Origin: Coriobacteriia bacterium
GTDB lineage: Bacteria; Actinomycetota; Coriobacteriia; Coriobacteriales; QAMH01
DNA: 64,000 nucleotides
Direction of reading: 5' to 3'
Assembly (NCBI GenBank): GCA_003149935.1
Contig: QAMH01000007.1
Location: 92,603-156,602 of the forward strand
Below, one piece after another: positions 2-31,616 of the stretch. The position numbers and the translations under genes were made by a program. The first letter of the stretch is position 1. Each line of letters starts with the position of its first letter. Under the pieces are notes generated by a model. It was not told the origin of the DNA. It saw only the letters and a program-made list of their open reading frames with translations, and did no database searches.

Positions 2-1183
2 ATGCTGGATGACAAGATCACGCTGTGGGATTCGACGAAGGACCCGGGCCGCCCGGACCTTTTCACCTTCGGCGGAGAAAAGCATCCGCTGTACAAGTCC
101 TTCGGTCGCTCCAACGATCCCAACTCCGTCTTCAAGGCCATGATCACCGGCGAGCCGCGCCCCGTGAAGATGTTCGTCGCCGTCGCCGATGACCCGCTGC
201 TGTGCTATGAGGACGCCAACCTGACCTATCAGGCCATGACCAGTCCCAATCTCGACCTCGTCGTGGTGAAGGACTTCTACCTTTCGCCCACGGCCCAGCT
301 GGCTGACATCGTGCTACCCACGGCCGATTGGTCGGAACGCTGCACGTACGATGAAGAACTGGACGGCCCCTTCATCCTCGCTTTTGACCAGGCCGTGCCC
401 GCGCCCGGTGAGTGCAAGGATGACTGGTGGTTCTGGTTGCAATGGGGCAAGCGCATGAATCCCGAGCAATGGCCCTGGAAGGACGAGAAGGAAATGGTCC
501 TCTGGCGCCTCAAGGAGTTCTACGACTTCGACCTCACCTGGGAGGAATTCCAGGGGGTGCCGGTGCGCGTCGTCGGTAACGCCGACCTCACCGCCGAGCC
601 GGTGTACAAGAAGTACGAGAAGGGTATGCTGCGCCCCGACGGTCAGCCGGGATTCCCGACTGTCACGGGCAAGATCGAGTTTTCCTCGCCGACCATGCAG
701 CTGTTCGGATACGACCCGCTGCCAGATTACACCGAGCCGGCCGAGAGCCCCTATTCCACGCCCGAGCTGGCCGAGGAATACCCGCTCATCGGCTCGACGG
801 GGCATCGCGTCTACAGCTTCTTCCATTCCGCGTGGACAAACGTGCCCGCCCAGCGCTACTTCTACCCCGAGCCGTTCGTCGTCATCCATCCGGACGATGC
901 CGCCACCTACAAGGTGACCGATGGCGAGTGGGTGACCATCTCCTCGCCGCGCGGCTCGATCATCTCCAAGGCGCTCGTGTCGCGCGAGGCCAAAAAGGGT
1001 GTCGTGTTCATTCCGCGTCCCGCCTGGCGTGACGAATGCGAGGCGCTGGGGCTGCCCGGCTACGGTTGGGACAAGGCCAACGGTAACGTGCTCGTTCCGT
1101 CTGAGCCTGCCGAGCCTGGCTACGGTGCTACGGCCATGCGTTCTTTCCTCTGCAAGATCGAGCCCGGAAGGGGTGAGCTGTAA
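2..1183 (+). CDS. Molybdopterin (bis-MGD, DMSO-reductase family) oxidoreductase catalytic subunit, C-terminal ~390 aa; 5' end outside window
   Basis: ORF is open to the window edge. Its C-terminal half is collinear by eye with the complete paralog at 12970-15135. TAATG stop/start overlap with the Fe-S gene at 1183. Confidence 0.8.
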   Translation: MLDDKITLWDSTKDPGRPDLFTFGGEKHPLYKSFGRSNDPNSVFKAMITGEPRPVKMFVAVADDPLLCYEDANLTYQAMTSPNLDLVVVKDFYLSPTAQLADIVLPTADWSERCTYDEELDGPFILAFDQAVPAPGECKDDWWFWLQWGKRMNPEQWPWKDEKEMVLWRLKEFYDFDLTWEEFQGVPVRVVGNADLTAEPVYKKYEKGMLRPDGQPGFPTVTGKIEFSSPTMQLFGYDPLPDYTEPAESPYSTPELAEEYPLIGSTGHRVYSFFHSAWTNVPAQRYFYPEPFVVIHPDDAATYKVTDGEWVTISSPRGSIISKALVSREAKKGVVFIPRPAWRDECEALGLPGYGWDKANGNVLVPSEPAEPGYGATAMRSFLCKIEPGRGEL

Positions 1184-2710: not shown

Positions 2711-5302
2711 TCACAGTAGCGGCTTGAGGTACTTTCCCGTCACGCTGTCCGCACATGTGACGACATGTTCGGGCGTGCCGGCGCAGACGATTTCGCCACC
2801 CGCCTCACCGCCGCCTGGTCCCATGTCGATCACGCAATCGGAGTTCGCGATGAGGTCGAGGTCATGCTCGATGACGATGACCGTCGCGCCCTTCTCGACG
2901 AGTCTCTGCAAGACGCGTAGCAGCACCTCGACGTCTGCCGGATGCAATCCGATGGTGGGCTCGTCGAAGACGAAGAGCGCGTCTGCCTGCTTCTTGTGCA
3001 TCTCGCCGGCGAGCTTGAGGCGCTGCGCCTCGCCACCCGAGAGCGCGGGCGTGGCCTCGCCCAGCGTGAGGTATCCCAGCCCCAGGTCGGAGAGCGTCTG
3101 GAGCTTGGTCTTGGCTTTGGCGATGCTGCCCGTCGCCATGCACAGCAGCTCGTCTACCGTGAGCGCGAGCACATCGGGAAGCGCGAGCTCCTTGGTATCC
3201 GACGACGTTTTCTCATCCGTGCCATCGATGCATGCGTCGACGTTTTCCAGTGGCAGGCGTACCGCGTATGCTTCCTCGCCATAGCGCGAGCCATGGCAAT
3301 CGGGGCAGGGGATGTCCACGTCGGGGAGGAACTGCACGTCAAGCGATATCTGTCCCGTGCCATCGCAGGTGGGGCAACGCAAGCTGCCCGTGTTGTACGA
3401 GAAGGCGCCGGCTTTGAGCTTGCGCTCCTTGGCCGCAGGCGCGGATGCGAAGGCGCGGCGCAGGTCGTCCATGATGCCGGAGTAGGTCGCCACCGTCGAG
3501 CGAACGTTTGCGCCGATGGGCGTTGCGTCGATAAGATGCACGCGCTTGATGTCGCCTGCATCGACCTCGTGCACGTGAGCGGGTAACTTGTTGCCGTCAA
3601 GCATGGCCCGCAAAGCCGGAATCAGGCTCTCGAGGATGAGCGTAGTCTTGCCCGATCCCGAGACGCCGGTGATGGCCGTCATGCGCCCAACGGGAATGCG
3701 CACGCTGAGTGACTTCACGGTATGCAGCGGGCCGGTCTCCAGCTCGATGGCCCCGTTATCGAACATGTCCTCGTCATTTGCACGCTTGCGCACATGTACG
3801 CTTTTCGCGCCTGAAAGATACGGGCCGATGCGTGATGCGGGATCATTCTCGACGTGCTTGACCGTGCCCTGGGCGATGACGCGGCCGCCATCAGAGCCGG
3901 AGCCGGGGCCGATCTCCACGAGGTAATCGGCATTTCTGAGCACGCGCAGGTCATGGTCGACGACCACGACCGAGTTGCCATCACCCATGAGGTCGTCGAT
4001 GACGCCGAGCAAGCCCTCGACATTCGATGGGTGCAGGCCGATGGAGGGCTCATCGAGCACGTAGAGCACGCCGGTGGTACGCGTGCGCACGGCACGCGCG
4101 AGCTGGACGCGCTGCAGCTCGCCGTTGGAGAGCGTGGAGCCGGCGCGGTCGAGACTCAGGTAGCCAAGCCCCAGTTGCCGCAGGCGCTGCATGGGCTCGC
4201 GCAGCTCGGAGATGATGGACGTGGCCATGGGACGCATCTCCTCGGGCAGCTTGCCTGGCAGGGCCGGCACCCAATCCGCGAGCTCGTCGAGCGTCTGCGC
4301 GGTCGCCTGCGCCAGGTTCATGCCGTCCAGAAGGCTCGAGCGTGCCTTGGCTGACAGACGCGTGCCGTGGCAATCGGGGCAGGTGCCCTGCTTGAGGAAG
4401 CGCGACACGCGGGCAAGCCCCTTCTCGTCCTTCACCTTGGCAAGCGCGTTTTTCACGGTGTTGACGGCACTGTAGTACGTGAAGTCGAGCTCGGTGGCGT
4501 GGTCCTTGTTCTTGGGCACGTAGAGGATGTGGCGCTTTTCCATGGGGCCATGCAGCACGATGTCCTTCTCGTGATCGGTGAGGTCACGGTATGGCACGTC
4601 GATGCGCACGCCCATCTCCTTGGCGACTTGCGGCATGAGCGACCACATGAGCTGACGCCACGGTGCGACCGCCCCCTCCTCGAGCGTGAGCGAGTCATCC
4701 GAGATGAGCGTGGACTCGTCGATTTCGCGCACGACGCCCGTGCCGCCGCAGGTGGGGCAGGCGCCCGCGCTGTTGAAGGCGAGGTCCTCGGCGCTGGGAC
4801 CGTAGAACTTCACATGGCAGACGGGACACTCGATGGGCTTCTCGGCGGCGACGTTGAGGCTGGGCGGCACGTGATGGCCGTTCGGGCACTCATGGCTACC
4901 CAGGCGTGAGAACATGAGACGTAGGTAGTTCAGCAGCTCGGTGGAGGTGCCGAAGGTGGAATGCACGCCAGGCACGGCCGGGCGCTGGCGCAGCGCGATG
5001 GCAGCCGGTACGTGCAGCACCTCGTCAACTTGGGCGCGTGTCGTCTGGCCGATGCGGCGGCGTGTGTAGGTGGAGAGCGCTTCCAGGTAGCGGCGGCTTC
5101 CCTCCGCATACAGCACGCCCAACGCAAGCGAGCTCTTGCCGGACCCGGAAACGCCGGCGATGCCGACCATCTGATGCAGTGGGATGTCGACGTTGATGTC
5201 CTTCAGGTTGTGGACGCGTGCGCCGCGCACCTCGATATCCGCCGGCTCGCGAAAGACGAGCCCGCCAACCTTGCACCTCGCCTCTTCGTTTGTGTTCGTC
5301 AT
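2711..5302 (-). CDS. UvrA-family double-ABC ATPase, paralog type (shorter than canonical UvrA)
   Basis: Walker A GVSGSGKSS and GVSGSGKTT; signatures LSNGELQRV and LSGGEAQRL; Walker B DEPSIGLH and DEPTIGLH; CxxC zinc modules (CPVC, CPTC, CPDCHG twice). It is 863 aa, and the region where the UvrB-binding domain normally sits looks absent by eye. Confidence 0.85.
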   Translation of the reverse strand: MTNTNEEARCKVGGLVFREPADIEVRGARVHNLKDINVDIPLHQMVGIAGVSGSGKSSLALGVLYAEGSRRYLEALSTYTRRRIGQTTRAQVDEVLHVPAAIALRQRPAVPGVHSTFGTSTELLNYLRLMFSRLGSHECPNGHHVPPSLNVAAEKPIECPVCHVKFYGPSAEDLAFNSAGACPTCGGTGVVREIDESTLISDDSLTLEEGAVAPWRQLMWSLMPQVAKEMGVRIDVPYRDLTDHEKDIVLHGPMEKRHILYVPKNKDHATELDFTYYSAVNTVKNALAKVKDEKGLARVSRFLKQGTCPDCHGTRLSAKARSSLLDGMNLAQATAQTLDELADWVPALPGKLPEEMRPMATSIISELREPMQRLRQLGLGYLSLDRAGSTLSNGELQRVQLARAVRTRTTGVLYVLDEPSIGLHPSNVEGLLGVIDDLMGDGNSVVVVDHDLRVLRNADYLVEIGPGSGSDGGRVIAQGTVKHVENDPASRIGPYLSGAKSVHVRKRANDEDMFDNGAIELETGPLHTVKSLSVRIPVGRMTAITGVSGSGKTTLILESLIPALRAMLDGNKLPAHVHEVDAGDIKRVHLIDATPIGANVRSTVATYSGIMDDLRRAFASAPAAKERKLKAGAFSYNTGSLRCPTCDGTGQISLDVQFLPDVDIPCPDCHGSRYGEEAYAVRLPLENVDACIDGTDEKTSSDTKELALPDVLALTVDELLCMATGSIAKAKTKLQTLSDLGLGYLTLGEATPALSGGEAQRLKLAGEMHKKQADALFVFDEPTIGLHPADVEVLLRVLQRLVEKGATVIVIEHDLDLIANSDCVIDMGPGGGEAGGEIVCAGTPEHVVTCADSVTGKYLKPLL

Positions 5303-5371
5303 AGTGGTCCCTCGGATAAGTCAAATACACGGGGTATTTGTTTTATTTTACCGCCAACGCTACATTTCCTC

Positions 5372-5402
5372 TTGACCTTCACGCAACGTCAAAGCGCAGG
5401 AT
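5372..5402 (+). promoter_or_regulatory. Candidate MerR-type promoter with a 19-nt spacer
   Basis: TTGACC (5372-5377), then a 19-nt spacer carrying a TTGAC/GTCAA dyad, then CAGGAT (5397-5402). It lies 40 nt upstream of the MerR-family gene. A 19-bp spacer is the MerR-family hallmark. Confidence 0.4.
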
Positions 5403-5442
5403 GCCTCTCGAAGATGCGTTTGGACCGCGATAGAGGAAGGAA

Positions 5443-6207
5443 ATGTCCATGCACATGACCATCGGCCAGATGGCACGGGAAGCCGGGGTGAGCACGCGAA
5501 CGCTGCGGCATTACGAGGAGCAAGGGCTGCTCGCTCCGCAGCGTACCGATGCGGGTTATCGCGTCTATGGCGATGCGGATGCCCGGCAGCTCGCGTGGGT
5601 GCTCGCCTTGCGCGCATGCAATGTGCCGCTTCCCACCATCCGCCGCCTCATCAATGCCCCAGATGAGGACCTCGCCAGCGCCCTCCGCGCGCATCTTCGT
5701 TCCCTCGAGGAGCAGGGAACCTCATTGGATGCGGCAATCGCGAGGACGAGAGCCGCGTTGGCAACCGTAGAGAGGATGGAAGACATGTCGACGAAAGACG
5801 CCTTCGAGATGATGAAGGAGCAGGGTCTGCGTGATTTCGAGCAAGAGTTTGGCGAGGAAGCGCGTAGCCTGTACGGTGATGAGGCCATCGATGCGAGCAA
5901 CGTGCGCATGATGGCACTCACCAAGGACGAGTGGGATGCGAAGGAGCTGCTGGAAGAGAGCATCAAGGTGCAGTTGCGCATCGCCATGGCAACCGACGAT
6001 CCCGCGAGCGACGCGGCCCAGGAGCTCGTGCGCATGCACAAGCGCTGGATCGACCTGCACTGGGGCGAGGGCTATGACCCGGAGCAATACTTCGCGCTCG
6101 CAGAGGGCTACCTGGCCGATCCGCGCTTCGTGAAGTACTACGATTCCGCCGCGGGCGAGGGTGCTACCGAGTTTCTGGTGAAGGCGGTACGCGCCTCGAG
6201 GAGATAG
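5443..6207 (+). CDS. MerR-family regulator with TipAS-like C-terminal effector domain (TipAL-like)
   Basis: N-terminal HTH IGQMAREAGVSTRTLRHYEEQGLL. Long C-terminal domain (...HWGEGYDPEQYFALAEGYLADPRFVKYYD). Divergent from the UvrA paralog. Confidence 0.85.
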   Translation: MSMHMTIGQMAREAGVSTRTLRHYEEQGLLAPQRTDAGYRVYGDADARQLAWVLALRACNVPLPTIRRLINAPDEDLASALRAHLRSLEEQGTSLDAAIARTRAALATVERMEDMSTKDAFEMMKEQGLRDFEQEFGEEARSLYGDEAIDASNVRMMALTKDEWDAKELLEESIKVQLRIAMATDDPASDAAQELVRMHKRWIDLHWGEGYDPEQYFALAEGYLADPRFVKYYDSAAGEGATEFLVKAVRASRR

Positions 6208-6402: not shown

Positions 6403-6618
6403 ATGGGTTATTCGATTGACGATAAGGTCAAGGTGCTGAAGAAGTCTCCGGCTGCTTGCGCGGTCATCACCGAGTATTCGCCCGGATTCGAGACGGATCC
6501 GCAGATGAAGCTCGTCGGCGGTCTGACCTTCCGCAAGCTCGCCTCGTTCCCGCAGGCCGGTCTGACCGAGGAGCAGGTTGCCGAGATTGACGAGAAGCTG
6601 AAGGCTATCGAGGAATAG
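6403..6618 (+). CDS. Small hypothetical protein (71 aa)
   Basis: ATG 6403 sits behind a strong RBS AGGGAGG (6391-6397). No motif recognised. The ORF-track start at 6280 lacks an RBS. Confidence 0.5.
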   Translation: MGYSIDDKVKVLKKSPAACAVITEYSPGFETDPQMKLVGGLTFRKLASFPQAGLTEEQVAEIDEKLKAIEE

Positions 6619-6641
6619 AGCAGGCAAGAACAAGCCGGTGC

Positions 6642-6676
6642 GAGGGGGCTGCCACGAGGCGGTCCCCTTCGTTTTG
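6642..6676. terminator. Bidirectional rho-independent terminator between convergent genes
   Basis: About 12-bp GC-rich stem (6642-6653 pairing with 6658-6669) with an ACGA tetraloop, followed by CGTTTTGG on the plus strand. It sits between the stop at 6616 and the stop at 6678. Confidence 0.6.
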
Positions 6677-6677
6677 G

Positions 6678-8177
6678 CTAGCTGCCCATGGCATCGTAAA
6701 TCTGCTGGGCCTTGAGCAGGATCTCGATGCGCAGGCGCTCGTCGGGATTCTTGAGGTCGCATCCCAGCTCGCGCTCGATGCGCCCGATGCGGTCGAGCAG
6801 CGTGCTGCGGTGGATGAACAGGGCCTTTGCGGTCTTGGCTATGCTCATGCTATTTGCCAGGTAGCAGCGAAGCGTCTCGATGTAGCTCACGTTCGCCTCG
6901 CGGTCGTGCTCGACGAGGCGCTTCATGCCATCGGTGAAGTACATCTCGAGCGGGAGGTCGCCGATGGCGTTGAGCACGAGCTTCATGAACGCGTAGTCCT
7001 GGAAGACGTAGCAGCGCGAGTCCTGCGTCTTGAACTCCGACCCCACGAGCGCGGCAAATGCCTGGTCGTAGTACAGGCGTACCTTGAGCAGGTCCGTGAA
7101 CGCGTCGCTGATGCCGACGGTTACGCCCACTGCCTCGACGAACTCCTCCAGGTCGGCCTTCAGGCGCTCGAGATAGCCCCCATCCTCATCGCACAGGTCA
7201 TCGACGCAGATGAGGCCGACGATGGACGCGCCGTGCGCAAAGGCAATGCTGTGGGGAAAGACGCTTTCCATCTCGGAGCAGATGTAGCCGTACGGAAGCG
7301 AGGCGAGATCCTTCGACAGAACCATCTTCACGCAGACGTAGCGGCGCTTCCCGCCAAGCTTTTCGAGCCGCGAGCGTTGGGCCTGGTCAATCGTCACGCA
7401 ATCCACGAGGTCGGCTATGACGTTGCGGAAGGCTCCGAAGTCTCCGCTTTCCGACGGAGGCAGCTGGCGCATCGCGAGGCTTATCGCGTCAGCGATGTAG
7501 GAGATCATGACGCCATCGCTTGGCAGGCGCCGGCGCCCCGCGTAGTCAAAGGTCACGCTTCCGGCGTATTCCTCGCCGACGAAGATGTTCTGGCACAGGT
7601 AGCTGCCATCGAGAATGGTCATGGAGATCGGGTCGTGCCTCTGCATTGCAAGGTCTTCGCTTGCCAAGAAGGTGCTGAGGTTCGCGAGGTCGAGGTAGGT
7701 GCCCGCCTGGTTTTCGGTCGCCGCCAGGACCCCGAAGTACTCGTCGAGGACGAGGATGTCGGTTCCGAGCACGGGCGCCGCGACATCTACGATTCGCTGG
7801 ATGCCGGCCGTGGTGTTGATGATGTTTGCTATCTCGGCATCGAGCGTCTCGTAGCGATTGTAGATGTCTTGCACGAGGTTGAACACGTTGAAGATGTCCG
7901 TGTCGTCGGTGACGTGGATGATGCAGCATCGGTTCTTGTAGAACGAGAGCTGCATGGTGTCGCCCACGACGACCAGCACCGCACCGGGGCGCACCGACGA
8001 GCGCATCGGTAGCTTGTCGGCGCGGATGATGTAGAGCGTGTCCTTCTCGAAGATCTGGCCGTTGCCGGTGTAGAAGCGTGGGCGACTGAGATGCAGCCCG
8101 CTCTCCTTGCGACCGAGCATCTCGACGGAGATGTGATCATTCAGGTTGTCGAAAACGATATCGGCGTTGAGCTTCAT
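6678..8177 (-). CDS. PucR/CdaR-family transcriptional regulator
   Basis: C-terminal PucR-type HTH (SIAKTAKALFIHRSTLLDRIGRIERELG) and a long N-terminal sensor-like region. Divergent from the operon starting at 8432. Confidence 0.85.
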   Translation of the reverse strand: MKLNADIVFDNLNDHISVEMLGRKESGLHLSRPRFYTGNGQIFEKDTLYIIRADKLPMRSSVRPGAVLVVVGDTMQLSFYKNRCCIIHVTDDTDIFNVFNLVQDIYNRYETLDAEIANIINTTAGIQRIVDVAAPVLGTDILVLDEYFGVLAATENQAGTYLDLANLSTFLASEDLAMQRHDPISMTILDGSYLCQNIFVGEEYAGSVTFDYAGRRRLPSDGVMISYIADAISLAMRQLPPSESGDFGAFRNVIADLVDCVTIDQAQRSRLEKLGGKRRYVCVKMVLSKDLASLPYGYICSEMESVFPHSIAFAHGASIVGLICVDDLCDEDGGYLERLKADLEEFVEAVGVTVGISDAFTDLLKVRLYYDQAFAALVGSEFKTQDSRCYVFQDYAFMKLVLNAIGDLPLEMYFTDGMKRLVEHDREANVSYIETLRCYLANSMSIAKTAKALFIHRSTLLDRIGRIERELGCDLKNPDERLRIEILLKAQQIYDAMGS

Positions 8178-8273
8178 GCTGCCGTCCCTAGAAAGGCGCC
8201 CCGTACCATACGTATCTTGCCCCGCGTGGATGCGCGATTCAACCCTAAAAGCCGTTCATAAAATAGGTGATAA

Positions 8274-8292
8274 CACCTACAGATTGTAGGTG
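8274..8292. promoter_or_regulatory. Candidate operator palindrome in the PucR/operon divergent intergenic region
   Basis: CACCTACA-GAT-TGTAGGTG, perfect 8-bp arms, inside the 254-bp divergent region 8178-8431. Confidence 0.35.
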
Positions 8293-8431
8293 CTCTATGT
8301 GATGCTCCGTGCCATTGAAACGCCTTGCCTGATGGGTGCCAAACCTCCGCTTTGTAGAATACAGCGCGGCCACTTTGCTCCGTAGTATCTGTTCCAAGCG
8401 CGGTTTTCCATCCCGAGAGAAGGAGGATACT

Positions 8432-9631
8432 ATGGCATTGCACGACAAGCTCGACTCCCACAAGGCAGTCGAGACGGTATGGGGCAAGCTCATCCCCGAG
8501 AAGGACGCGTATCGGTACGCCGTCCGCGAAATCGCGGCATTCTGCTCGAACATCTTCCAGGTCATGCGCATTCTCGAACCAGACTTCGATACGTGCACCG
8601 AGGCGATCTGCGAGATGTCCTACAACCTGAACATGGGCGTGTCCGGCGAGGAGTACCTCAACACGTTCTACGACGACTGGAACATCCCCGAGTTTTGCGA
8701 GAAGAGCGCCTGGCTCGGGGCCATCTTCGGTGACTACGGCGACGAGGCCGAGAACATGGCCGGTCGCGTCATCCAGTTCACGAAGGACAGGGTCGAGAAG
8801 GAGCTCGATACCTGCCCGTGGGATATCGTCGGTGCCGAGCTGTGCAACATGACGACGGCGATGTTCACCGCGAACTTCGACCTCGCCAACGGGGGCGAGA
8901 ACGACGTGTCGCTCAACATGTGCGAGGCCCGCGGCTGCGGTGACCGCCATTGCCGCGTCGTCGCCGAGCGTCGCTCCGCCTTCGGACTGCCCAAGCAGGG
9001 ATTCCTCGATCACATGGGCACGCCGGTCATGCCGGTTCATGACACGCCCGAGGAGCGCACGGTCAAGGATGGCCAGATCCTGCGCAATGGACAGTACTCC
9101 AACGCCTTTGGCGAGGAACACAGCCTGGAATACGACTACCGATGGTTGTGCGAGTTTGGCTGGGCGTGGTGCGTCGCCTTCCCGCTCGCCGTCATCCGCG
9201 ACCTTCCCGATGACGAGGAGGAGTTCCTCCGCATCTTCCGCATCGTCTTCTCGACGGCGGGCAAGAACCTGTTCATGGAGCCGTTCACCAAGCGCGCCGT
9301 GCGCGACTGGCTCGGTGTCCCGGATTCCATCGGCGAGAACGACCCGCGCATCATGGGCGCCTACATCAAGACGCTCATGGATTGCCAGCTCGTGCCCAGC
9401 GAGTTCGATGCCTTCACCAAGGACGAGGTCCGCATCAAGGTCAAGACCGACGACTTCAACGGGCGTTTCGAGATGGCGCCGATGGACGAGCTCGCAATCG
9501 GTTACGAGGCCTTGTGGCACAACGCCGTAAAGACGCTGGTGAGCGCCGAGTGGTCGTGCTGGTTCGAGGGCATGGACGACGAGGACATGACCATCGTCGT
9601 CGCCCGCAAGATCGACAAGCACATGATTTAG
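8432..9631 (+). CDS. Cys-rich protein of unknown function (399 aa), possible metal-binding
   Basis: ATG 8432 sits behind an AGGAGG RBS (the ORF-track start at 8336 is upstream). The segment CPWDIVGAELC...MCEARGCGDRHCRV recalls, from memory, the ATC-hydrolase-like Cys-motif family. Family assignment is low confidence. Confidence 0.6.
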   Translation: MALHDKLDSHKAVETVWGKLIPEKDAYRYAVREIAAFCSNIFQVMRILEPDFDTCTEAICEMSYNLNMGVSGEEYLNTFYDDWNIPEFCEKSAWLGAIFGDYGDEAENMAGRVIQFTKDRVEKELDTCPWDIVGAELCNMTTAMFTANFDLANGGENDVSLNMCEARGCGDRHCRVVAERRSAFGLPKQGFLDHMGTPVMPVHDTPEERTVKDGQILRNGQYSNAFGEEHSLEYDYRWLCEFGWAWCVAFPLAVIRDLPDDEEEFLRIFRIVFSTAGKNLFMEPFTKRAVRDWLGVPDSIGENDPRIMGAYIKTLMDCQLVPSEFDAFTKDEVRIKVKTDDFNGRFEMAPMDELAIGYEALWHNAVKTLVSAEWSCWFEGMDDEDMTIVVARKIDKHMI

Positions 9632-9643
9632 GAGGTTGCGGAG

Positions 9644-10639
9644 ATGCTATTCAAGGAAGACGAGGCTGCGCGCGCCGAGGCACGCGCCGTACGCGAGAAC
9701 GCCGCATGGTATCGCTGGACCCACGACCTCGTGGAGGTGAAGGGTCCGGATGCGGATCGGTTCGTCCAGCACCTGTTCGTGAGCGATATGACAAAGGCGC
9801 CGGTCGGGCGCTCCAAGTACACGACCATGCTCAATGAGGACGGCAAGATCATCGACGACACCATCGTCATGCACGTAGACGATGACGTCTACTGGATCTC
9901 GACGTTGTATGCGCCCCAGTTCCTCGAGTGGGCCAGTGCGCATGACGAGGGCTTCGACGTGACGTGCACGGACATTACCAAGAGCGTGGACATGTACGCC
10001 GTGCAGGGGCCCAACTCACTTGCCATGATCAACGCTCTGGCCAGCGAGCCGGTTGACGACCTCAAGCGCTTCGCGATCATGGACGACATCATCGCGGGCG
10101 TGGACGTGAAGATCCATCGCGCGGGTTTCACGGGCGAGCTCGGCTACGAGATTTACGTGCCGATGGAGCAATCGCCGGCCATCGAGGCGGCACTTGCCGA
10201 GACCGGCGAGAAGATGGGCGTTCCCGAGCTCCAGATTCTCGAGGTGTACGTGCGCAGCATTCCGGTCGAGAAGGGTTTTGCCCTGCGACAGGACATGTAT
10301 GGCCTCACGCCCTATGAATGCGACCTGGGTTGGTCGGTTGCCATGGATACGGACTTCGTCGGCAAGGATGCGCTGCAAGTCGCGGTCGAGGCGGGCAACG
10401 ACTATAGGCTCGTGGGCCTCGAGTTTCTCAATGACTCCTATGAGGACATCGCCCAACGCGAGATCGTGTATCGCAAAGGCGTGCCCTGCGGGTTCGTGCG
10501 TGCGGCAATCTACGGCTACACCGTGGACAAGAACATCGGCTTTGCGGTCATCGAGGCTGCCAAGGCGATTAACGGCGAGGAAGTCACAGTTGGCGAGAAC
10601 GAGTCACCCGCCATCATCTGCGACAAGGTATTCGTGTAG
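9644..10639 (+). CDS. GcvT-family (aminomethyltransferase-like) folate-binding protein
   Basis: Typical GcvT-fold sequence (YAVQGPNS..., RAGFTGELGYEIYVP, C-terminal barrel). Strong RBS AGGAGG. Same family as the glycine-cleavage T protein and tetrahydrofolate-dependent demethylases. Confidence 0.8.
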   Translation: MLFKEDEAARAEARAVRENAAWYRWTHDLVEVKGPDADRFVQHLFVSDMTKAPVGRSKYTTMLNEDGKIIDDTIVMHVDDDVYWISTLYAPQFLEWASAHDEGFDVTCTDITKSVDMYAVQGPNSLAMINALASEPVDDLKRFAIMDDIIAGVDVKIHRAGFTGELGYEIYVPMEQSPAIEAALAETGEKMGVPELQILEVYVRSIPVEKGFALRQDMYGLTPYECDLGWSVAMDTDFVGKDALQVAVEAGNDYRLVGLEFLNDSYEDIAQREIVYRKGVPCGFVRAAIYGYTVDKNIGFAVIEAAKAINGEEVTVGENESPAIICDKVFV

Positions 10640-10651
10640 GGGGAGGACGCA

Positions 10652-11431
10652 ATGAAACTCGAGGGTAAATCCATAGTCGTCACCGGCGCGGTCGCCGGCA
10701 TCGGCAATGCCATCACCGAGCTGTTCGCCAACGAGGGCGCGAACATCATCGCCGTCGACAAGCAGGAGAAGCGATTGCTCGACTATTGCGCATCCGTGGA
10801 CGCGCCGGGCAAGGTCGTGCCGTTTCCGGGAGACGTGTCATTCCAGGAGACGACGGATGGCATGATCGATGCGGCGGTACGCGAGTTCGGGTGCTTCGAC
10901 GTCCTCGTGAACAACGCCGGTGTCATGGACGACAATACCGCCATCGGCGATATGAGCGATGCGATGATGGACGAGTGCTTCGCGGTGAACGCGATGGGGC
11001 CCATGCGTGCTATGCGCAAGGCCGTGCAGACCTTCATCGAGCTCAACCCGGATGCCGAGGAAGACGAAGACACCATCGGCAGCATCATCAACCTGACTTC
11101 GGTGGGCGCCGTGCATCAAACGGCCGGTGCGGCATACTGCGCATCGAAGGGCGCGCTGCTCTCGGCAACGAAGAACACCGCCTTCATGTACATCCACAAG
11201 GGCATCCGCTGCAACGCAATCGCGCCGGGCGGCATCGTCACCGAGATTCCCATCACCATGCCACCGTCGGATCCCTTCGGTTTTGGCCGCACAAGCGAGC
11301 TGCTTGTCCATTCGTCGCTGCTCGGCATGCCCGAGGACATCGCGAACGCCGCGCTCTTTCTCGCCCAGGACGAATCGCACTTCGTGAACGGAGCCGTCAT
11401 CACCGTTGATGGAGCCTGGACGACGTTCTAA
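10652..11431 (+). CDS. Short-chain dehydrogenase/reductase (SDR)
   Basis: TGAVAGIGNAI cofactor motif and YCASKGAL (YxxxK) catalytic motif. Confidence 0.9.
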   Translation: MKLEGKSIVVTGAVAGIGNAITELFANEGANIIAVDKQEKRLLDYCASVDAPGKVVPFPGDVSFQETTDGMIDAAVREFGCFDVLVNNAGVMDDNTAIGDMSDAMMDECFAVNAMGPMRAMRKAVQTFIELNPDAEEDEDTIGSIINLTSVGAVHQTAGAAYCASKGALLSATKNTAFMYIHKGIRCNAIAPGGIVTEIPITMPPSDPFGFGRTSELLVHSSLLGMPEDIANAALFLAQDESHFVNGAVITVDGAWTTF

Positions 11432-11652
11432 AAACCGCGCGCCGCTGCAATCTGGGAGAGCAGCGGCGCATCCAGCCAATCGGTGCCCTGGTCCCTCGCT
11501 CGGCCGGGGTGCCGGTCTTTCATCAATGAGACAACATCTCTGCGCAACCGCCTCATTCCAGGTGGCCAATTTCCTCGGCACTCGCGGCTCCTCGATTGCA
11601 ATCCCCTGGCGGCAAGCATTACTATTGGCCAGAGATTTCCAGAGAGGGATTC

Positions 11653-12942
11653 ATGGCAAACGATGTCGTCATTCTTGGGTTCGGCCCTGCCGCCGCCAGC
11701 GCCGTGGAGGCGTTGCGCTCGCAAGGATGCGACGCGAACGTGGACATCGTCACCGCAGGTCCCGCTTTTTGCGAAAGCCCGGTCCTGACTTCGTATAACG
11801 CAGCCGGAATCGTAGCCCGCGAGCAGGGAAGCATCTTCACTTCGGTGCTCGACGATGCCAATACGCACATCTTCCCGAACGAGGAGATCACGTCCTTAGA
11901 TACGGAAGGCCAGACCGTCAAAGCCGCAAGCGGTCGCGAGTGGCTCTATTCCGTTTGCCTGATAGCCACAGGTGCATCGCCCGTGCTTTCGGGCGAAAGC
12001 CCGCTTTTCGAATGCGATCCGCTTACGCTCAGGACCTTCGAAGACGCCGAACGCCTGAGCACGGTGCTTGCCGCACGTCCCCATGTCAGCATCCTCATCT
12101 CCGGGACCTCCATGGTCGCCCTCAAGGCGGCGGAGGCGTGCATCCGCAGGGGCGGGCAGCCGACCGTTCTGGGTCGCAGCCCTCATATCCTCAAAGGGTC
12201 GGCGCATCCCCGTGCGGCTTCCAGGATGGAGGCCCTGCTCGAAGACCAGGGAATAGAGCTCCTGCTCGGCGAGACTGCCGAAAAAGCCCACGTTCTCGAA
12301 GATGGCTCCACAAGCGTTTCCTTTTCCCACCAGGAAGAACCGAAAATTTTCGATGCGGTTCTCGTAGCCCATGGCATGAGCCCCAACATCGACTTCATCG
12401 AAAATGCCAACATACATGCCGATAGGGGAATCGTCGTCGATGCCTTCATGCGCACGAGCGTCCCTCATGTCTATGCGGCGGGAGATGTGGCAAAAGCGCC
12501 CTGCTTGTTTGGAGGAAGCAAGGTGGCCGGGCTCTGGCTCGCGGCACGTCAGCAGGGTAAGGTAGCGGGGGCGAACATGGCAAGGGAGCTTCGCGACGAG
12601 GGAAGGGCATACGCATCCGATGCCTCCGCTTTTGCCGGCAGCATGGAATATCACGGATTTCTTCCCGCGAACATCATCAAGGTCGGAGACGCGCTGTTCG
12701 CCGCTGCGGGAATGATTCCGTCGGCCGAAGATCCATTCGCGATCGAGGAGATCGAGACCGAGAACGAGTATCTGATGAAGTCCTATCTCATCCTGCAGGA
12801 CGGCCGGGCCTTGCTATGCGGTTTCAATCTCGTGGCAAAAGCCGACATGGCCGGACTCTTTGGCAAGCTGACGGATTCGATCGGGCGTATGCAGGCGGAA
12901 ATAGCCCGCAATGCGCTTCAAGGCGCATTCACCAATGTTTGA
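11653..12942 (+). CDS. FAD-dependent pyridine-nucleotide-disulfide-type oxidoreductase
   Basis: VVILGFGPAAASA FAD motif, a second dinucleotide fold (ILISGTSMVALKAAE) and AAGDVA. Start set at ATG 11653 (ORF track 11596). Confidence 0.8.
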   Translation: MANDVVILGFGPAAASAVEALRSQGCDANVDIVTAGPAFCESPVLTSYNAAGIVAREQGSIFTSVLDDANTHIFPNEEITSLDTEGQTVKAASGREWLYSVCLIATGASPVLSGESPLFECDPLTLRTFEDAERLSTVLAARPHVSILISGTSMVALKAAEACIRRGGQPTVLGRSPHILKGSAHPRAASRMEALLEDQGIELLLGETAEKAHVLEDGSTSVSFSHQEEPKIFDAVLVAHGMSPNIDFIENANIHADRGIVVDAFMRTSVPHVYAAGDVAKAPCLFGGSKVAGLWLAARQQGKVAGANMARELRDEGRAYASDASAFAGSMEYHGFLPANIIKVGDALFAAAGMIPSAEDPFAIEEIETENEYLMKSYLILQDGRALLCGFNLVAKADMAGLFGKLTDSIGRMQAEIARNALQGAFTNV

Positions 12943-12969
12943 CGGTTTCATGAGCGAGACGGAGGAGAG

Positions 12970-15135
12970 ATGAACGAGCGCGAGCTGAGGGAAAAGGGCA
13001 AGGTCCCCGGTCCGGAGACGGGCATCGAAATCAAGAAGTCCATCTGCACGATTTGCGACCCGACCACGCAATGCGGGCTTGACCTGTTCGTGAAGGATGG
13101 CAAGATCATTCGAGTCGAGGGTTCGAAGGAGGCCCCGCATTCTCACGGCAGCCTGTGCTCGAAGGGTGCGGCCACGCGGCAATATGTCTATAGTCCCGAC
13201 CGGCTGAAGACCCCGCTGCGGCGTGTGGGCGAGCGTGGCGAGGGCAAGTTCGAGCCAATCAGCTGGGATGAGGCCCTGGACGAAATCGCCAAAAACCTCA
13301 ATGCCGCAAAGGCGGAGTATGGCCCGGAATCGGTCATCTTCTTCGCGGGCTACCCCAAGCACCACAGGCCGTTCTTGCAGCGTCTTGCCATGAGCTTTGG
13401 TTCGCCGAATTACTGCACCGAATCGAGCACGTGCTCGACGGCAACCATCATGGCCCAGCAGCTCACCTATGGTGCGCCTGCAGCCCCGGACAACGGTGAG
13501 TCGGCTTGCATAATGATGTGGTCCAACAACCCGGCAGCGTCAAGGACGCTCATATGTGAAGGATTGTTCAATCGTTTGGACAAGGGGACGAAGCTGATAG
13601 TGGTCGACCCTCGCGTCACCCCTTTCGCGGCTCGTGCAGACATTCACTTGCAGCTGCGCCCCGGCACCGACGGCGCGCTGGCGCTTGCGATGGCCAATGT
13701 CATCATCGAAGAGAACCTCTACGATGCCAACTTCGTCGCCAATTGGACGGTCGGTTTCGAGGAATACGCCAAGCTTGCCGCCGAGATGACTCCGGAAAGG
13801 GCGCAGGACATCACGGGCGTTGACGCGAGCTTGATTCGCGAGGCGGCCCGGATGTACGCGACCACGAAGCCCGCGAGTATCATGACCAGCGCGGCACCTG
13901 TGGTCCATCACACGAATGGCGTGCAGAACTACCGTGCGGTGTTCTGCCTCATCGGATTGACCGGCAACTTCGACATCCATGGTGGGAACCTCATGAACAG
14001 GCCCTCGCTGGTGCACATACCGGGAGGTTTCCCCACGCGCGAGGGCGAGTTCACCTTGGCGTCCCGTCTGAAGGATTTGCCGGAAAGGATTGGCTCCCGC
14101 CGTTTCCCGGTATGGGATCGGTTGACTACGCAAGCGCAGGCGTGCGATATCCCAAGGCAGATTCTGACCGAGGATCCCTACCCGCTCAAGGCCGCGTTTT
14201 GCATGGGCTTCAACCATAGGATGTTCCCCGATTCGCAAGGCTTCATCGACGCCTTCAGCAAACTCGACTTCATAGCGGTGGCAGATCCCTTCCTGACCGA
14301 CAGCGCCAAGTATGCCGACATCGTCTTGCCGGTATGCACCTCGGTGGAGCGCAGCGAAGCGCGGTGCTGGCCCATGGGCTACGTGATGCTCTCGCAGCCC
14401 GCGATAGATCCGGTGGGGCAGTCCCGCTCCGATGTCGATATCATCGCGCAGCTGAGCCGTGAGCTGGGTCTGGGCGATGACCTGCTCGAGTCGGGATTCG
14501 ATGCGTGCCTGGATTGGATGCTCGAGCCCAGCGCCCTGTCCGTTGCAGAGCTCAAGAAGCATCCGGCCGGGATGTTCGTCCCCGATTTCAAGAAGCCCGC
14601 CGAGAGGAAGTACGTCGATCAGGGATTCAAGACCCCGTCGGGCAAGTTCGAATTTGCCTCCAGCGTGCTCTCCGAAATGGACGGCGAGGGATTCGAGGCG
14701 CTTCCCTCTTTCCGGGAGCCGGCTATAAGCCCCGTCTCGCAGCCGGAGATTGCCAAGGAGTACCCGTTCGTCCTGTCCGTCGGTGCTCGCAAGCCCATGT
14801 TCCAGCACAGTCGCACCTTCCGCATTCCCTGGATTCGCCAGTTCGCGCCAGATCCTGTCTGCGACATGAATCCGGCCGACGCCAAGCGTGTCGGCATCGC
14901 CGAGGGCGAGGAAGTCGAGCTCATGACGCCGGAGGGAAGCGTTTTTGTGAAGGCGCATCTGGACGAGATGATTCGCGAAGGTGACGTGCACCTCTATCAT
15001 GACTGGCCCGAGGCCAATGGAAACGACCTCATGTCGGGCGATTACCTCGATCCCATTTCGGGCTTCCCGGGATACAGGTCCCTGCTCTGCAAGGTGGTCC
15101 CCGCCCGCACGAGCGTCAATGCGAAGGAGGCTTAG
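12970..15135 (+). CDS. Molybdopterin (bis-MGD) oxidoreductase catalytic subunit, cytoplasmic type (721 aa)
   Basis: N-terminal 4-Cys Fe-S motif CTICDPTTQC...LCSKG followed by MopB-type and C-terminal dinucleotide-binding regions. No RRxFLK twin-arginine motif. Confidence 0.9.
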   Translation: MNERELREKGKVPGPETGIEIKKSICTICDPTTQCGLDLFVKDGKIIRVEGSKEAPHSHGSLCSKGAATRQYVYSPDRLKTPLRRVGERGEGKFEPISWDEALDEIAKNLNAAKAEYGPESVIFFAGYPKHHRPFLQRLAMSFGSPNYCTESSTCSTATIMAQQLTYGAPAAPDNGESACIMMWSNNPAASRTLICEGLFNRLDKGTKLIVVDPRVTPFAARADIHLQLRPGTDGALALAMANVIIEENLYDANFVANWTVGFEEYAKLAAEMTPERAQDITGVDASLIREAARMYATTKPASIMTSAAPVVHHTNGVQNYRAVFCLIGLTGNFDIHGGNLMNRPSLVHIPGGFPTREGEFTLASRLKDLPERIGSRRFPVWDRLTTQAQACDIPRQILTEDPYPLKAAFCMGFNHRMFPDSQGFIDAFSKLDFIAVADPFLTDSAKYADIVLPVCTSVERSEARCWPMGYVMLSQPAIDPVGQSRSDVDIIAQLSRELGLGDDLLESGFDACLDWMLEPSALSVAELKKHPAGMFVPDFKKPAERKYVDQGFKTPSGKFEFASSVLSEMDGEGFEALPSFREPAISPVSQPEIAKEYPFVLSVGARKPMFQHSRTFRIPWIRQFAPDPVCDMNPADAKRVGIAEGEEVELMTPEGSVFVKAHLDEMIREGDVHLYHDWPEANGNDLMSGDYLDPISGFPGYRSLLCKVVPARTSVNAKEA

Positions 15136-15137
15136 GC

Positions 15138-15647
15138 ATGACTTCCAAAGATACCAAGAGCATCGTCTTCAAGTCCGACCGCTGCATAGGATGCTATTCG
15201 TGCGTCGTGTCATGCATGGATCAGAACGACCTCGATGTCGCGAAGGATGGCTTGTCTTGGCGAATCGTCGAACACGTTCCCGGGAAGCTGGCGGGCAGGC
15301 AGCGTGGCAACGCCAGCGTCTCGATCGCCTGCATGCATTGCGAAGATGCGGTGTGCATAGCCGCGTGCCCTGCAGGGGCGATAACGCGAGATGCCGCAAC
15401 GGGATCCGTGCTGGTGGACGATGGCCTGTGCATCGGCTGTCATGCCTGCGCGATGGCCTGCCCGTTTGGGGCCCCTCGTTTTGGGAGTAGCGGGAAGATG
15501 CAGAAATGCGACGGGTGCTATGCCAGAACGCAGTTCGGGCTGGAACCAGCGTGCGTCAGGAACTGCCCGACCCACGCGCTCGTCTACGAACCGGTTAATG
15601 CCTCGATGGACGAGAAGGCGGCCAGCGCAGCCCGAAAGCTCGTGTAG
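15138..15647 (+). CDS. 4Fe-4S dicluster ferredoxin-type subunit (169 aa)
   Basis: CIGCYSCVVSC, CMHCEDAVCIAACP, CIGCHACAMACP and CDGC...C motifs. Starts 3 nt after the Mo subunit stop. Confidence 0.9.
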   Translation: MTSKDTKSIVFKSDRCIGCYSCVVSCMDQNDLDVAKDGLSWRIVEHVPGKLAGRQRGNASVSIACMHCEDAVCIAACPAGAITRDAATGSVLVDDGLCIGCHACAMACPFGAPRFGSSGKMQKCDGCYARTQFGLEPACVRNCPTHALVYEPVNASMDEKAASAARKLV

Positions 15648-15759: not shown

Positions 15760-16416
15760 TCATTCATTGGCGATGCCGTATTTCTCCACGGTCCGCGCGA
15801 GCTTCTTCTCGTAGCAGGAGTGTGCCGTGTACAGCACCGCGCACGGGTTGTTACCGGCGAGGAAGTCCTTCGTGGCAAAGGTCGTGACGGGTGCATCGGA
15901 GTACTTGCAGAAGAGGGCGTCGTGTCCCACGCATATGCCCATGAGGATGTTCAGGTCCGTCTTCGCTTCGTTGAGGAGAAGCGCCTGCATGATGGGATTG
16001 CAGACGACGCCTCCTTCGCCGCCCCTTGTCGGGGGCTCGAGGTCGAGGTCGGCCCTCCGGTTGCTCTCGAGCTTGCAGCCAACCGTCTCGACACAAAAGC
16101 CCGCTTGTTCAAGCAGCTTGGCCAGAATGCGCGTCTCGCGTAGCATGATGGTGCACGACGCGATGCCGATGTGGATGGCGCCGATGAGGTTCGCAAACTT
16201 GATGGTGTCCTGCACGCGTGTGGAATTCACCGTCTCCTCGCTGACCATCGCGGCGGCTTGCATGATGACGTGGTTTTCGGGAAGCGCGTATAGACGTTGC
16301 GCCTCGTCATGTAGCGCAGACGAGACCGCGCCCTGCGCGCAAAACCCCGGTCCTTCGCGATCGGTGTATTCGCATGCGGTGGTTCCGCAGCTCATGCAAT
16401 TGAGCTTTGATTCCAT
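15760..16416 (-). CDS. DUF1847-like Cys-rich putative metal-binding protein, copy 1
   Basis: MESKLNCMSCGTTACEY... N-terminal CxxC. Near-identical paralog at 23141-23806. Start set at ATG 16416 behind a GGGAGG RBS, because the ORF-track extension to 16593 runs across a tRNA gene. The DUF name is from memory. Confidence 0.75.
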   Translation of the reverse strand: MESKLNCMSCGTTACEYTDREGPGFCAQGAVSSALHDEAQRLYALPENHVIMQAAAMVSEETVNSTRVQDTIKFANLIGAIHIGIASCTIMLRETRILAKLLEQAGFCVETVGCKLESNRRADLDLEPPTRGGEGGVVCNPIMQALLLNEAKTDLNILMGICVGHDALFCKYSDAPVTTFATKDFLAGNNPCAVLYTAHSCYEKKLARTVEKYGIANE

Positions 16417-16505
16417 GGTCCCTCCCGATTGGATCTCGCGGGTCGCAGATATGACGACCAATATCATACGACCCCGCTCGAAGGAACGGGGCCGTGGGGT
16501 CATGA

Positions 16506-16580
16506 TGGAGCGGGCGACGGGACTCGAACCCGCGGATACCAGCTTGGGAAGCTGGGGCCTTACCACTTGGCGACGCCCGC
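16506..16580 (-). tRNA. tRNA-Gly(CCC), intact, CCA-encoded
   Basis: GCGGGCGTCGCCAAGTGGTAAGGCCCCAGCTTCCCAAGCTGGTATCCGCGGGTTCGAGTCCCGTCGCCCGCTCCA. It has a perfect 7-bp acceptor stem, a 5-bp anticodon stem CCAGC/GCTGG, loop TTCCCAA, T-loop TTCGAGT and U73. Confidence 0.9.
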
Positions 16581-16630
16581 ATTGAGTGAGCATTATACCG
16601 CTACCTCATCCTTTACTCTGGTCATTTTGG

Positions 16631-24356: not shown

Positions 24357-24417
24357 TTTTCATGTACATGCTGTACACGAAATTATAAATTTTCATGTAC
24401 AATATGTACACGAAATT
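24357..24417. repeat. Two 28-bp direct repeats in an AT-rich promoter region
   Basis: TTTTCATGTACATGCTGTACACGAAATT (24357-24384) and TTTTCATGTACAATATGTACACGAAATT (24390-24417), with a 33-bp period. Each contains a TGTACA-N-TGTACA dyad. Confidence 0.6.
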
Positions 24418-24463
24418 GAGAATTGGAGCAAACTCGAGCAGACGTGATTCAGGGGCTGATTTT

Positions 24464-30171: not shown

Positions 30172-30173
30172 CC

Positions 30174-30932: not shown

Positions 30933-31080
30933 TACCCCTTTTCCGTGGATGGGCCGGCCTCTAGCAGCCCCCGCTGTCGGCCCATTCGCTTCTCTCATGC
31001 TACCAAGGGCGTGGCGTGCATCACGCGAAGCGTGACACCAAGATGCGTCCTTGACCCCCAACTCCAAGGAGGGAATCATT

Positions 31081-31527: not shown

Positions 31528-31616
31528 GCCCGCTTCGGGCGAACATCGTCTCCTGACATCGCTCGTGTTTGTACAGGCCGAGCTTTGCTCGGCTCGCCTT
31601 CAGAAAGGATACAGCA

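Follow-up and report, generated by a model that had tools for sequence, protein, structure and literature searches.

A conserved GcvT-family gene module, probably for folate-dependent one-carbon removal, beside a separate molybdoenzyme unit in a Coriobacteriia bacterium

Do seven neighbouring genes of a Coriobacteriia bacterium, encoding a PucR/CdaR-type regulator, a cysteine-rich protein of 399 amino acids (aa), a GcvT-family folate-binding protein, a short-chain dehydrogenase/reductase (SDR), a flavin adenine dinucleotide (FAD) flavoprotein, a bis-molybdopterin guanine dinucleotide (bis-MGD) enzyme and a four-cluster ferredoxin, belong to one pathway? The genes lie in a 64,000-nucleotide stretch of contig QAMH01000007.1 (the window, whose positions are used for all coordinates), and an earlier interpretation based on the letters and open reading frames (ORFs) alone, hereafter the sequence-only reading, had joined them into a single PucR-controlled cluster in which a methyl-removing step is coupled to a molybdenum (Mo)-dependent one. 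The seven genes, their families and their spacing were borne out by the ORF map, the translations and the Pfam and NCBIfam searches; the coupling was not. Comparison with relatives separates a strongly conserved five-gene module, comprising the genes for the PucR, 399-aa, GcvT-like and SDR proteins and a small 71-aa protein (6403-11431), from a separate conserved three-gene unit for the FAD, Mo and iron-sulfur (FeS) proteins (11653-15647). We consider it probable that the two units are independent and that the module is a substrate-inducible, oxygen-independent system for one-carbon removal that depends on tetrahydrofolate (THF).

An alignment of the 399-aa family served as the query in a search for relatives among 185,579 species-representative genomes. 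The 219 loci confirmed place the module in at least 219 species-level genomes of two phyla, and the best 80 were kept; these originate from Eggerthellaceae, Christensenellaceae, Lachnospiraceae, Oscillospiraceae, Anaerovoracaceae and Atopobiaceae. The presence of genes was scored by tblastn with the seven window proteins, and the denominators of the synteny counts are the loci extending far enough for the gene in question to be judged. The GcvT-like gene adjoins the 399-aa gene in 72 of 72 loci, the SDR gene is present in 65 of 65 and a divergent PucR homologue in 63 of 64, with a shared order of divergent PucR followed by the 399-aa, GcvT-like and SDR genes, so that these four, grouped in the sequence-only reading, do form a real unit. 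The 71-aa gene had been overlooked. It was detected by tblastn in 68 of 84 sequences (67 loci and the window) and in 39/39 loci with room for it; its position varies, being after the 3' end of the PucR gene, after the SDR gene (L086) or between the SDR and 399-aa genes (L082), and because it stays with the set while gene order shifts, we regard it as part of the module. Flanking synteny with close relatives was absent outside the module, and a search for plasmid carriage of the module gave no match. Full-text literature searches found no paper on this gene combination, in agreement with the earlier impression that it is not a described system.

Recurrent neighbours of the module, with the number of loci for each, are genes for FolD (18), FTCD_C/FchA (17), Fhs (14), FolC (12), FolE (8) and a formate/nitrite-type channel (8). 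In an Atopobiaceae-type, Olsenella-like locus (L084), the SDR gene is followed by co-directional genes for Fhs, FchA, FolD, FolE, the channel and FolC; in L082, folate one-carbon genes adjoin the module divergently; and in L003, whose 399-aa protein is 93% identical to that of the window, FchA (FTCD_C) and FolD genes come directly after the SDR gene. The recurrence of Fhs, FchA, FolD and formate channel genes speaks for a one-carbon system that depends on folate and is most likely catabolic, and the module most likely moves a one-carbon group from its substrate onto THF. The folate-dependent half of the pathway proposed in the sequence-only reading thus fits these neighbours, whereas its Mo-dependent follow-on step finds no support in synteny (see below).

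The association extends to distant paralogues. In L091, L092 and L093, the GcvT-like gene still follows, under AraC or LysR regulators, and L091 carries two tandem triads of 399-aa-like, GcvT and SDR genes together with a major facilitator superfamily (MFS) transporter. The GcvT-like gene adjoins the 399-aa family gene in every examined context that reaches far enough, except L094, a 2.7-kb contig in which the next gene after the 399-aa paralogue encodes an AP_endonuc_2 protein. When metagenomes were scanned with the paralogues, genes for a PucR-type regulator, an SDR and a GcvT-like protein again accompanied the family. Neighbours within the paralogue clades include MFS transporters (9 loci), zinc-dependent alcohol dehydrogenases (10 loci), a GH78 rhamnosidase (1 locus) and an M24 peptidase with a Bmp-type ATP-binding cassette (ABC) transporter (12-15 loci, suspected to come from one species), and multidrug and toxic compound extrusion (MATE) transporter genes lie near the module in 4 loci. 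As pointers to a named substrate, these transporter, dehydrogenase, peptidase and rhamnosidase neighbours are too weak. Extra divergent SDR-like genes for proteins of 278-289 aa also adjoin the module in several taxa (12 and 10 loci; for example, L009 13060-14777, L071 13819-14688 and L081 4942-5811). At 1674-3092 in L091 and 1071-2489 in L092, a gene for a 472-aa protein with no Pfam match separates the AraC regulator gene from the tandem pair of 399-aa-like/GcvT/SDR sets.

Further evidence bears on regulation. The divergently encoded regulator combines a C-terminal HTH_30 domain (2.2e-20) with a GGDEF_2 middle domain (2.3e-06), as is typical of the PucR/CdaR family, and its weak NCBIfam matches include PmfR. 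A palindrome in the divergent promoter region, TACAGATTGTA, is a candidate PucR operator. Among 72 orthologous intergenic regions of distant taxa, its pattern, TACA-N3-TGTA, is matched exactly in 21 (0.5% of shuffles) and at seven or more of the eight positions in 45 (shuffles, about 12%), and it usually precedes the first gene by 110-160 bp. The window contains three exact sites, against 0.09 expected, and the window scan found none in the gap preceding the FAD gene. This distribution supports PucR control of the three-gene operon (399-aa, GcvT-like and SDR genes) and not of the Mo trio. The two further exact palindromes (24365-24375 and 24398-24408) are 33 bp apart and fall at the start of a gene for an AAA_14/DUF4143 ATPase (24395-25849). 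A sigma-70 promoter scan yielded sites no more often than expected by chance.

The trio behaves as a unit of its own. The Mo gene follows the module in 1 of 39 loci with room for it, and the FAD, Mo and FeS genes do so only in L001, which belongs to the same species (98% identity) and is therefore not independent evidence in either direction; the FAD, Mo and FeS genes thus lack the synteny in relatives whose absence the sequence-only reading had named as a refutation. Eggerthellaceae, Desulfomonilaceae, other Deltaproteobacteria and Moorella commonly have a homologue of the Mo subunit (57-76% identity). The flavoprotein-Mo-ferredoxin trio stands with no GcvT module nearby in the three contexts examined, namely another Eggerthellaceae genome, a 2.6-Mb genome and Moorella naiadis, the flavoprotein homologue adjoining the Mo gene in these loci (L088, L089 and L090). 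From the 399-aa gene to the ferredoxin gene, the intergenic gaps measure 12, 12, 221, 27 and 2 bp, and the 221-bp gap between the SDR and FAD genes contains strong hairpins that had escaped the sequence-only reading: a 108-nucleotide segment has a minimum folding free energy of -53.4 kcal/mol (z = -4.9), a stability that 200 shuffled versions all failed to reach. By their predicted stability, these hairpins are a probable transcription stop between the module and the trio.

The catalytic subunit of the trio has the Fe4S4, Molybdopterin and Molydop_binding domains of the bis-MGD (dimethyl sulfoxide reductase) superfamily, with an aligned Cys as candidate metal ligand, and direct inspection of its N-terminus revealed no twin-arginine motif, as had been stated for the signal of twin-arginine translocation (Tat). 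Its best match in the Protein Data Bank (PDB) is acetylene hydratase (2e7z, 4e-80), with which it shares the CxxCD motif at the FS0 cluster and a Cys ('...SSTCSTA...') aligned with the Cys just after a shared GSPN motif; in acetylene hydratase, we take the Asp of CxxCD to be Asp13 and the Cys after GSPN to be the tungsten ligand Cys141. Both proteins are Tat-less bis-MGD subunits of about 720 aa. Acetylene hydratase is a non-redox monomer, whereas the window unit carries a four-cluster ferredoxin and an FAD/NAD(P)H subunit (NAD(P), nicotinamide adenine dinucleotide, phosphorylated or not), and these conserved partners argue for a redox enzyme. The flavoprotein has PadH as its best NCBIfam match and 8c0z_E as its best PDB match, a predicted ferredoxin:NADH oxidoreductase-type subunit of an aldehyde oxidoreductase. 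The 8c0z enzyme is, we presume, AorABC of Aromatoleum, with flavoprotein, polyferredoxin and metallopterin subunits, an architecture similar to that of the trio. The Mo subunit remains below all NCBIfam cut-offs, and the ferredoxin scores 131 bits against 214 for its DmsB-like model. Assignment to the polysulfide and thiosulfate reductases (PsrA/PhsA) was rejected on the PhsA score (314.9 against 694 bits), the missing RR motif and the partners, which comprise a flavoprotein and a soluble ferredoxin and include no membrane subunit, so that membership in a characterised polysulfide- or thiosulfate-type reductase, which would have undercut the sequence-only reading, does not apply. Judged by these similarities, the Mo unit appears to be a self-contained cytoplasmic NAD(P)H-linked oxidoreductase of an acetylene-hydratase-related branch, in which electrons would pass from NAD(P)H via FAD and four [4Fe-4S] clusters to the bis-MGD cofactor, and nothing indicates that it works jointly with the module.

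Within the module, the 399-aa protein is the most conserved component. Sequence and profile searches returned no match in Pfam, NCBIfam or PDB; all 353 homologues are annotated as hypothetical, and a profile search of 1.84 billion representative proteins recovered only 137 relatives of the family. A single 90%-identity cluster comprises 13,171 sequences. Between Actinomycetota and Bacillota, the protein is 60-75% identical, compared with 50-69% for the GcvT-like protein. The Cys motif described earlier (CPWD...C...CEARGCGDRHC) is present, and C128, C138, C164, C169, H173 and C174 are invariant in the family, as are Asp and Glu residues. An alignment of 10 distant full-length paralogues keeps the equivalents of C128, C138 and C174 invariant while C164 and C169 vary, and a reading by eye suggests that E165 persists too and that H173 is kept in most. 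This pattern favours a Cys3-type (Zn-like) site, and on the conserved Cys and His residues we place a putative Cys3(+His/Glu) metal site in the protein; an FeS cluster was rejected because C164 and C169 are replaced in the distant paralogues. An AlphaFold2 (AF2) model was obtained (predicted local distance difference test, pLDDT, 77.8; predicted template modelling score 0.81), and its Foldseek matches are weak (E >= 6e-3, template modelling score about 0.5 per domain) and comprise Bet3, H-NOX and the MopR/PoxR phenol-sensor domain, suggestive of a small-molecule-binding type of fold. An internal duplication, hinted at by the predicted order of secondary-structure elements in the two halves, was dropped at the sequence level, as hhalign detected no similarity (probability 0.1%). 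Three 90%-identity clusters (P0116, P0013 and P0002) mix 399-406-aa proteins with 329-331-aa GcvT-like proteins, which might stem from gene calls fused across the 12-bp gap in some assemblies; if fusions of the two genes were real, a physical complex would gain support.

The GcvT-like protein has the GCV_T and GCV_T_C domains, the conserved Asp and the G(F/Y)TGE motif of its superfamily, and the motifs IIDD and GFTGE.G.E are invariant in 74 orthologues; the functional roles of these residues are taken over from the GcvT literature. Domains were called with Pfam, equivalogs were tested against NCBIfam cut-offs and similarity to solved proteins was taken from PDB. The protein falls under every NCBIfam cut-off, SoxA included: it scores 161.9 bits against 300 for GcvT model NF001567 and 140.7 against 235.85 for TIGR00528, 80.8 against 580 for LigM, 88.5 against 800 for DesA, 109 against 410 for DmdA and, over the GcvT part only, 123.5 against 1100 for Tdm. 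In PDB it is approximately equidistant from GcvT, SoxA (sarcosine oxidase alpha; 4e-25), dimethylglycine oxidase (DMGO; 2e-23), Tdm (6e-22) and DmdA, with LigM farthest (1.5e-10). Its N-terminus is about 30 residues shorter than that of GcvT, and the short MLF start is invariant in the 74 orthologues. GcvH was absent from the window and loci L001-L083 in a search with an approximate E. coli GcvH query, and no GcvP occurs among the Pfam-scanned ORFs of the window, which agrees with the earlier remark that other glycine-cleavage genes are missing. The scores below all cut-offs and the lack of GcvH in this range indicate a distinct GcvT subfamily with intact folate motifs, outside all curated functional families. 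The earlier separation of this folate-binding protein from the glycine-cleavage T protein is upheld, and by NCBIfam score the protein reaches none of the GcvT, LigM, DesA and DmdA groups among which its placement had been envisaged. In the SDR, the GxxxGxG motif and the catalytic residues S150, Y162 and K166 are invariant in 65 orthologues. The 71-aa protein has 92 homologues of 70-72 aa, all annotated as hypothetical, and no Pfam or NCBIfam match; it is predicted to be helical (AF2 pLDDT 90.5), with weak fold matches only, to 2k53 and the N-terminal domain of YtfE. Neither it nor the 399-aa protein belongs to a described family.

Starting from this gene set, its conservation and linkage to folate genes, and the intact folate motifs and SDR catalytic triad, we infer a reaction direction, a role for each protein, a metal and a class of substrate. 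The PucR-type protein would act as activator of the substrate-inducible module. A small, probably hydrophobic or hydroxylated organic substrate would bind to the 399-aa protein at its Cys3(+His/Glu) metal site, where this protein and the NAD(P)-dependent SDR would turn a methyl, methylene or hydroxymethyl group into a one-carbon unit at the level of formaldehyde. The GcvT-like protein would trap this unit on THF as 5,10-methylene-THF, which FolD, FchA and Fhs, neighbours of the module in many genomes, could oxidise to formate with a gain of ATP. Two variants are conceivable: a methyl group bound to N or O could be oxidised with NAD(P)+ to give an iminium or a hemiacetal, or oxidation of an alcohol by the SDR could be followed by a metal-assisted retro-aldol step that frees formaldehyde from a hydroxymethyl group, toward which the extra dehydrogenases of the paralogue loci slightly lean. 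A membrane-permeant, plant-derived compound would be compatible with the lack of a conserved transporter, the ligand-binding type of fold and the occasional MATE, MFS and rhamnosidase neighbours. More tentatively, the 399-aa, GcvT-like, SDR and 71-aa proteins may constitute a new oxygen-independent, NAD(P)-linked class of demethylase, demethylenase or formaldehyde-lyase, widespread in gut anaerobes, in which a metalloprotein of a hitherto undescribed family generates the one-carbon unit and hands it to THF, with paralogues diversified by substrate among small molecules of the diet or the host for whose microbial dealkylation no genes are known.

Several points weigh against this proposal. Fhs, FchA, FolD and the formate channel run both ways, so the linkage to them leaves the direction of one-carbon flow unfixed; we know of no precedent for the SDR step among GcvT-family demethylases; the main clade has no conserved transporter that would give a clue to the substrate; the fold assignment of the 399-aa protein is weak and its metal site rests on conserved Cys and His residues only; and the hairpins in the gap lack a clear U-tract, which makes read-through into the trio possible.

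The first of these points opens the way to a real rival, a one-carbon-consuming role, which we nevertheless rate as unlikely. Here Fhs, FchA and FolD would turn imported formate into 5,10-methylene-THF, from which the GcvT-like protein would pass the methylene group to an acceptor on the 399-aa protein, and the SDR would then reduce the product, a hydroxymethylation plus reduction like that of PanB plus PanE or of reverse glycine cleavage. Fhs, FchA, FolD, the channel, FolC and FolE also supply biosynthetic one-carbon units, and in L084 their genes run in the direction of the module; a conserved uptake transporter is lacking, and GcvT chemistry is reversible, as established for the glycine cleavage system. 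Peripheral catabolic modules, in turn, are typically marked by what is seen here: a dedicated regulator of the PucR, AraC or LysR type, an expansion into paralogues that are joined by MFS transporters and additional dehydrogenases, and a patchy distribution among phyla. To our knowledge, moreover, all characterised GcvT relatives outside glycine cleavage remove one-carbon groups.

No likelier than this reversal is an arrangement in which the GcvT-like protein alone is the demethylase or demethylenase and the 399-aa protein is a non-catalytic partner that, like a V4R-type domain, binds the substrate in order to deliver or sense it. LigM, DesA, DmdA, SesA and BrdA are GcvT-family enzymes that remove one-carbon groups and act alone (PMC5547118). 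They share with the window protein the GCV_T folate-binding fold and, as is proposed here for the module, they are independent of oxygen, transfer a one-carbon group from a small molecule to THF and are encoded in catabolic operons; the weak fold matches of the 399-aa protein, to H-NOX, MopR/PoxR and Bet3, are ligand-binding or sensor folds. In contrast to those solitary enzymes, the GcvT-like protein is always paired with the 399-aa protein and nearly always with the SDR, with the 71-aa protein in addition; it lies far under the LigM, DesA and DmdA cut-offs, and LigM is its remotest PDB relative in the family. The pairing is kept in all distant paralogue contexts examined but L094, and a catalytic subunit would more typically show the high conservation of the 399-aa protein, in which Cys, His, Asp and Glu residues are invariant. 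As for genomic setting, ligM of Sphingobium SYK-6 presumably lies next to metF and a formyl-THF ligase gene.

The single pathway of the sequence-only reading, in which THF-dependent demethylation or demethylenation is followed by a Mo-dependent reduction, for instance the dehydroxylation of a catechol, with electrons delivered from NAD(P)H by the flavoprotein and ferredoxin, is improbable, and more so than either of the preceding alternatives. The seven genes are contiguous on one strand and L001 has the same layout; a demethylenase would yield a catechol, and a GH78 rhamnosidase beside the 399-aa/GcvT-like pair in one paralogue locus hints at plant polyphenols. The closest characterised relative of the Mo enzyme is acetylene hydratase, as reported for gut catechol dehydroxylases, and the soluble catechol dehydroxylases of Gordonibacter are likewise small and Tat-less, with a small 4Fe-4S partner (PMC7028382). 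The likeness to these Cldh/Dodh-type enzymes, drawn by description only, extends to a bis-MGD subunit of about 720 aa and an Eggerthellaceae host, but the window unit has an extra FAD subunit absent from their description and no adjacent MFS gene of the kind that often accompanies them. Against the single pathway stand the linkage in one locus of the same species among 39, the occurrence of the trio as an independent conserved unit in other phyla and the nature of the gap, which has hairpins and no candidate operator and is where L003 has its FchA and FolD genes. Third-codon-position GC is also lower in the trio (0.68-0.78) than in the module (0.82-0.87). Moreover, the 64-kb window holds four bis-MGD genes, which makes chance adjacency to any operon unremarkable, and molybdoenzyme genes are so dense in Eggerthellaceae that adjacency alone says little. 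Finally, that the GcvT-like protein is an ordinary glycine-cleavage T protein with partners encoded elsewhere is highly improbable, for although its top-scoring NCBIfam and PDB matches are GcvT, it falls well short of both cut-offs (162 against 300 and 141 against 236 bits), has a conserved short N-terminus, is accompanied by no GcvH in the window or the first 83 loci (approximate query) and stands beside the 399-aa gene in every examined locus reaching far enough.

The proposed one-carbon removal follows the logic of Tdm, dimethylglycine oxidase/dehydrogenase and SoxA, in which a catalytic partner makes a formaldehyde-level carbon and the GcvT part captures it as methylene-THF, and the similarity to their GcvT parts is comparable (6e-22, 2e-23 and 4e-25 for Tdm, DMGO and SoxA). 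The catalytic domain of Tdm uses a Cys-ligated Zn. In these enzymes, however, the partner is unrelated: the module has neither an FAD domain nor a DUF1989 domain and its parts are separate polypeptides, whereas Tdm fuses a DUF1989-type metal domain to the GcvT domain and the 399-aa partner matches no Pfam family. We know of no NAD(P)-dependent SDR redox step in the Tdm/DMGO/SoxA class. A regulatory parallel exists on pAO1 of Arthrobacter nicotinovorans, where the PucR-family activator PmfR controls the demethylation operon purU-mabO-folD. That system likewise places a demethylating enzyme and folate one-carbon oxidation genes under PucR-family control, but a flavin oxidase carries out the demethylation, the host is aerobic and there is neither a 399-aa protein nor an SDR.

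The features of the locus are compiled below. The ATG of the 399-aa gene sits behind the ribosome-binding site GAAGGAGGA.

Features of the five-gene module and of the adjoining molybdoenzyme trio (window positions)
Feature	Position	Strand	Basis
Small 71-aa protein gene, fifth conserved module member	6403..6618	+	tblastn conservation
GC-rich hairpin between the convergent 71-aa and PucR genes, likely terminator	6642..6669		12-bp stem, 8 GC pairs, T-rich tail; consensus match only
PucR/CdaR-family regulator, divergent from operon	6678..8177	-	HTH_30 72.7 bits, GGDEF_2 28 bits
Palindrome TACAGATTGTA, candidate PucR operator in divergent promoter region	8278..8288		TACA-N3-TGTA
399-aa Cys protein	8432..9631	+	ORF; no Pfam, NCBIfam or PDB sequence match
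GcvT-family folate-binding protein, 331 aa	9644..10639	+	GCV_T 154 bits, GCV_T_C 45 bits
Classical SDR oxidoreductase	10652..11431	+	adh_short_C2 162 bits
Stable hairpins directly 3' of SDR stop, probable transcription stop	11439..11532	+	Folding energy; one stem then T-rich tail
FAD/NAD(P)H flavoprotein, predicted electron-input subunit of Mo unit	11653..12942	+	Pyr_redox_2 132 bits; real start 11653
Cytoplasmic bis-MGD (Mo or W) catalytic subunit, 721 aa	12970..15135	+	Fe4S4, Molybdopterin and Molydop_binding domains
Four-cluster [4Fe-4S] ferredoxin subunit, 169 aa	15138..15647	+	Fer4_11; 16 Cys in four CxxCxxCxxxC-type groups

Two paralogous DUF1847 genes lie on the minus strand (15760-16593 and 23141-23806), the first directly downstream of the Mo trio; the 5' end of this ORF overlaps a transfer RNA gene (16509-16580, minus strand), and translation therefore probably begins at a more internal position. 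L001 has one DUF1847 copy about 2.3 kb after its ferredoxin gene. A second molybdoenzyme cluster (27625-36101, all genes on the plus strand) encodes an 848-aa bis-MGD protein with no Fe4S4-domain match, a 252-aa four-cluster ferredoxin, an SDR (31569-32360), an MFS transporter (32312-33655), a NuoE-like 2Fe-2S protein (33701-34249) and a NuoF-like flavin mononucleotide (FMN)/NADH subunit (34236-36101), and resembles a further cytoplasmic Mo system linked to NADH. At the start of the window (2-1183) lies part of another bis-MGD gene, and a fourth bis-MGD gene (53080-55548) follows a duplicated MarR regulator on the minus strand (52014-52961), an MFS transporter (50683-52017) and an enoate-reductase-like FMN/FAD protein of the old yellow enzyme type (48706-50652).

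Elsewhere in the window, an 863-aa UvrA paralogue, matched by the UvrA model from about residue 157 and just under the UvrA cut-offs, is encoded divergently from a MerR/TipAS-type regulator (5443-6207) within 2711-6207, a pairing that we take to resemble drug-response loci. The segment 36295-40811 carries genes for an AbiEi-type antitoxin regulator and a 421-aa protein with no Pfam match, together with ParB_N- and ParA-type genes on the minus strand, which may belong to a partition locus or an integrated element. An FMN riboswitch (100.5 bits) is located at 58329-58470 on the plus strand; immediately downstream, the longest ORF runs on the opposite strand, and it may be spurious.

Corrinoid-dependent methyltransferase systems currently account for nearly all that is understood of how strict anaerobes remove one-carbon groups from molecules of the diet and the host. 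If the role proposed here for the module is true, folate-dependent, corrinoid-free one-carbon removal would constitute a second route in anaerobes, and a protein family that lacks any annotation would acquire a function.

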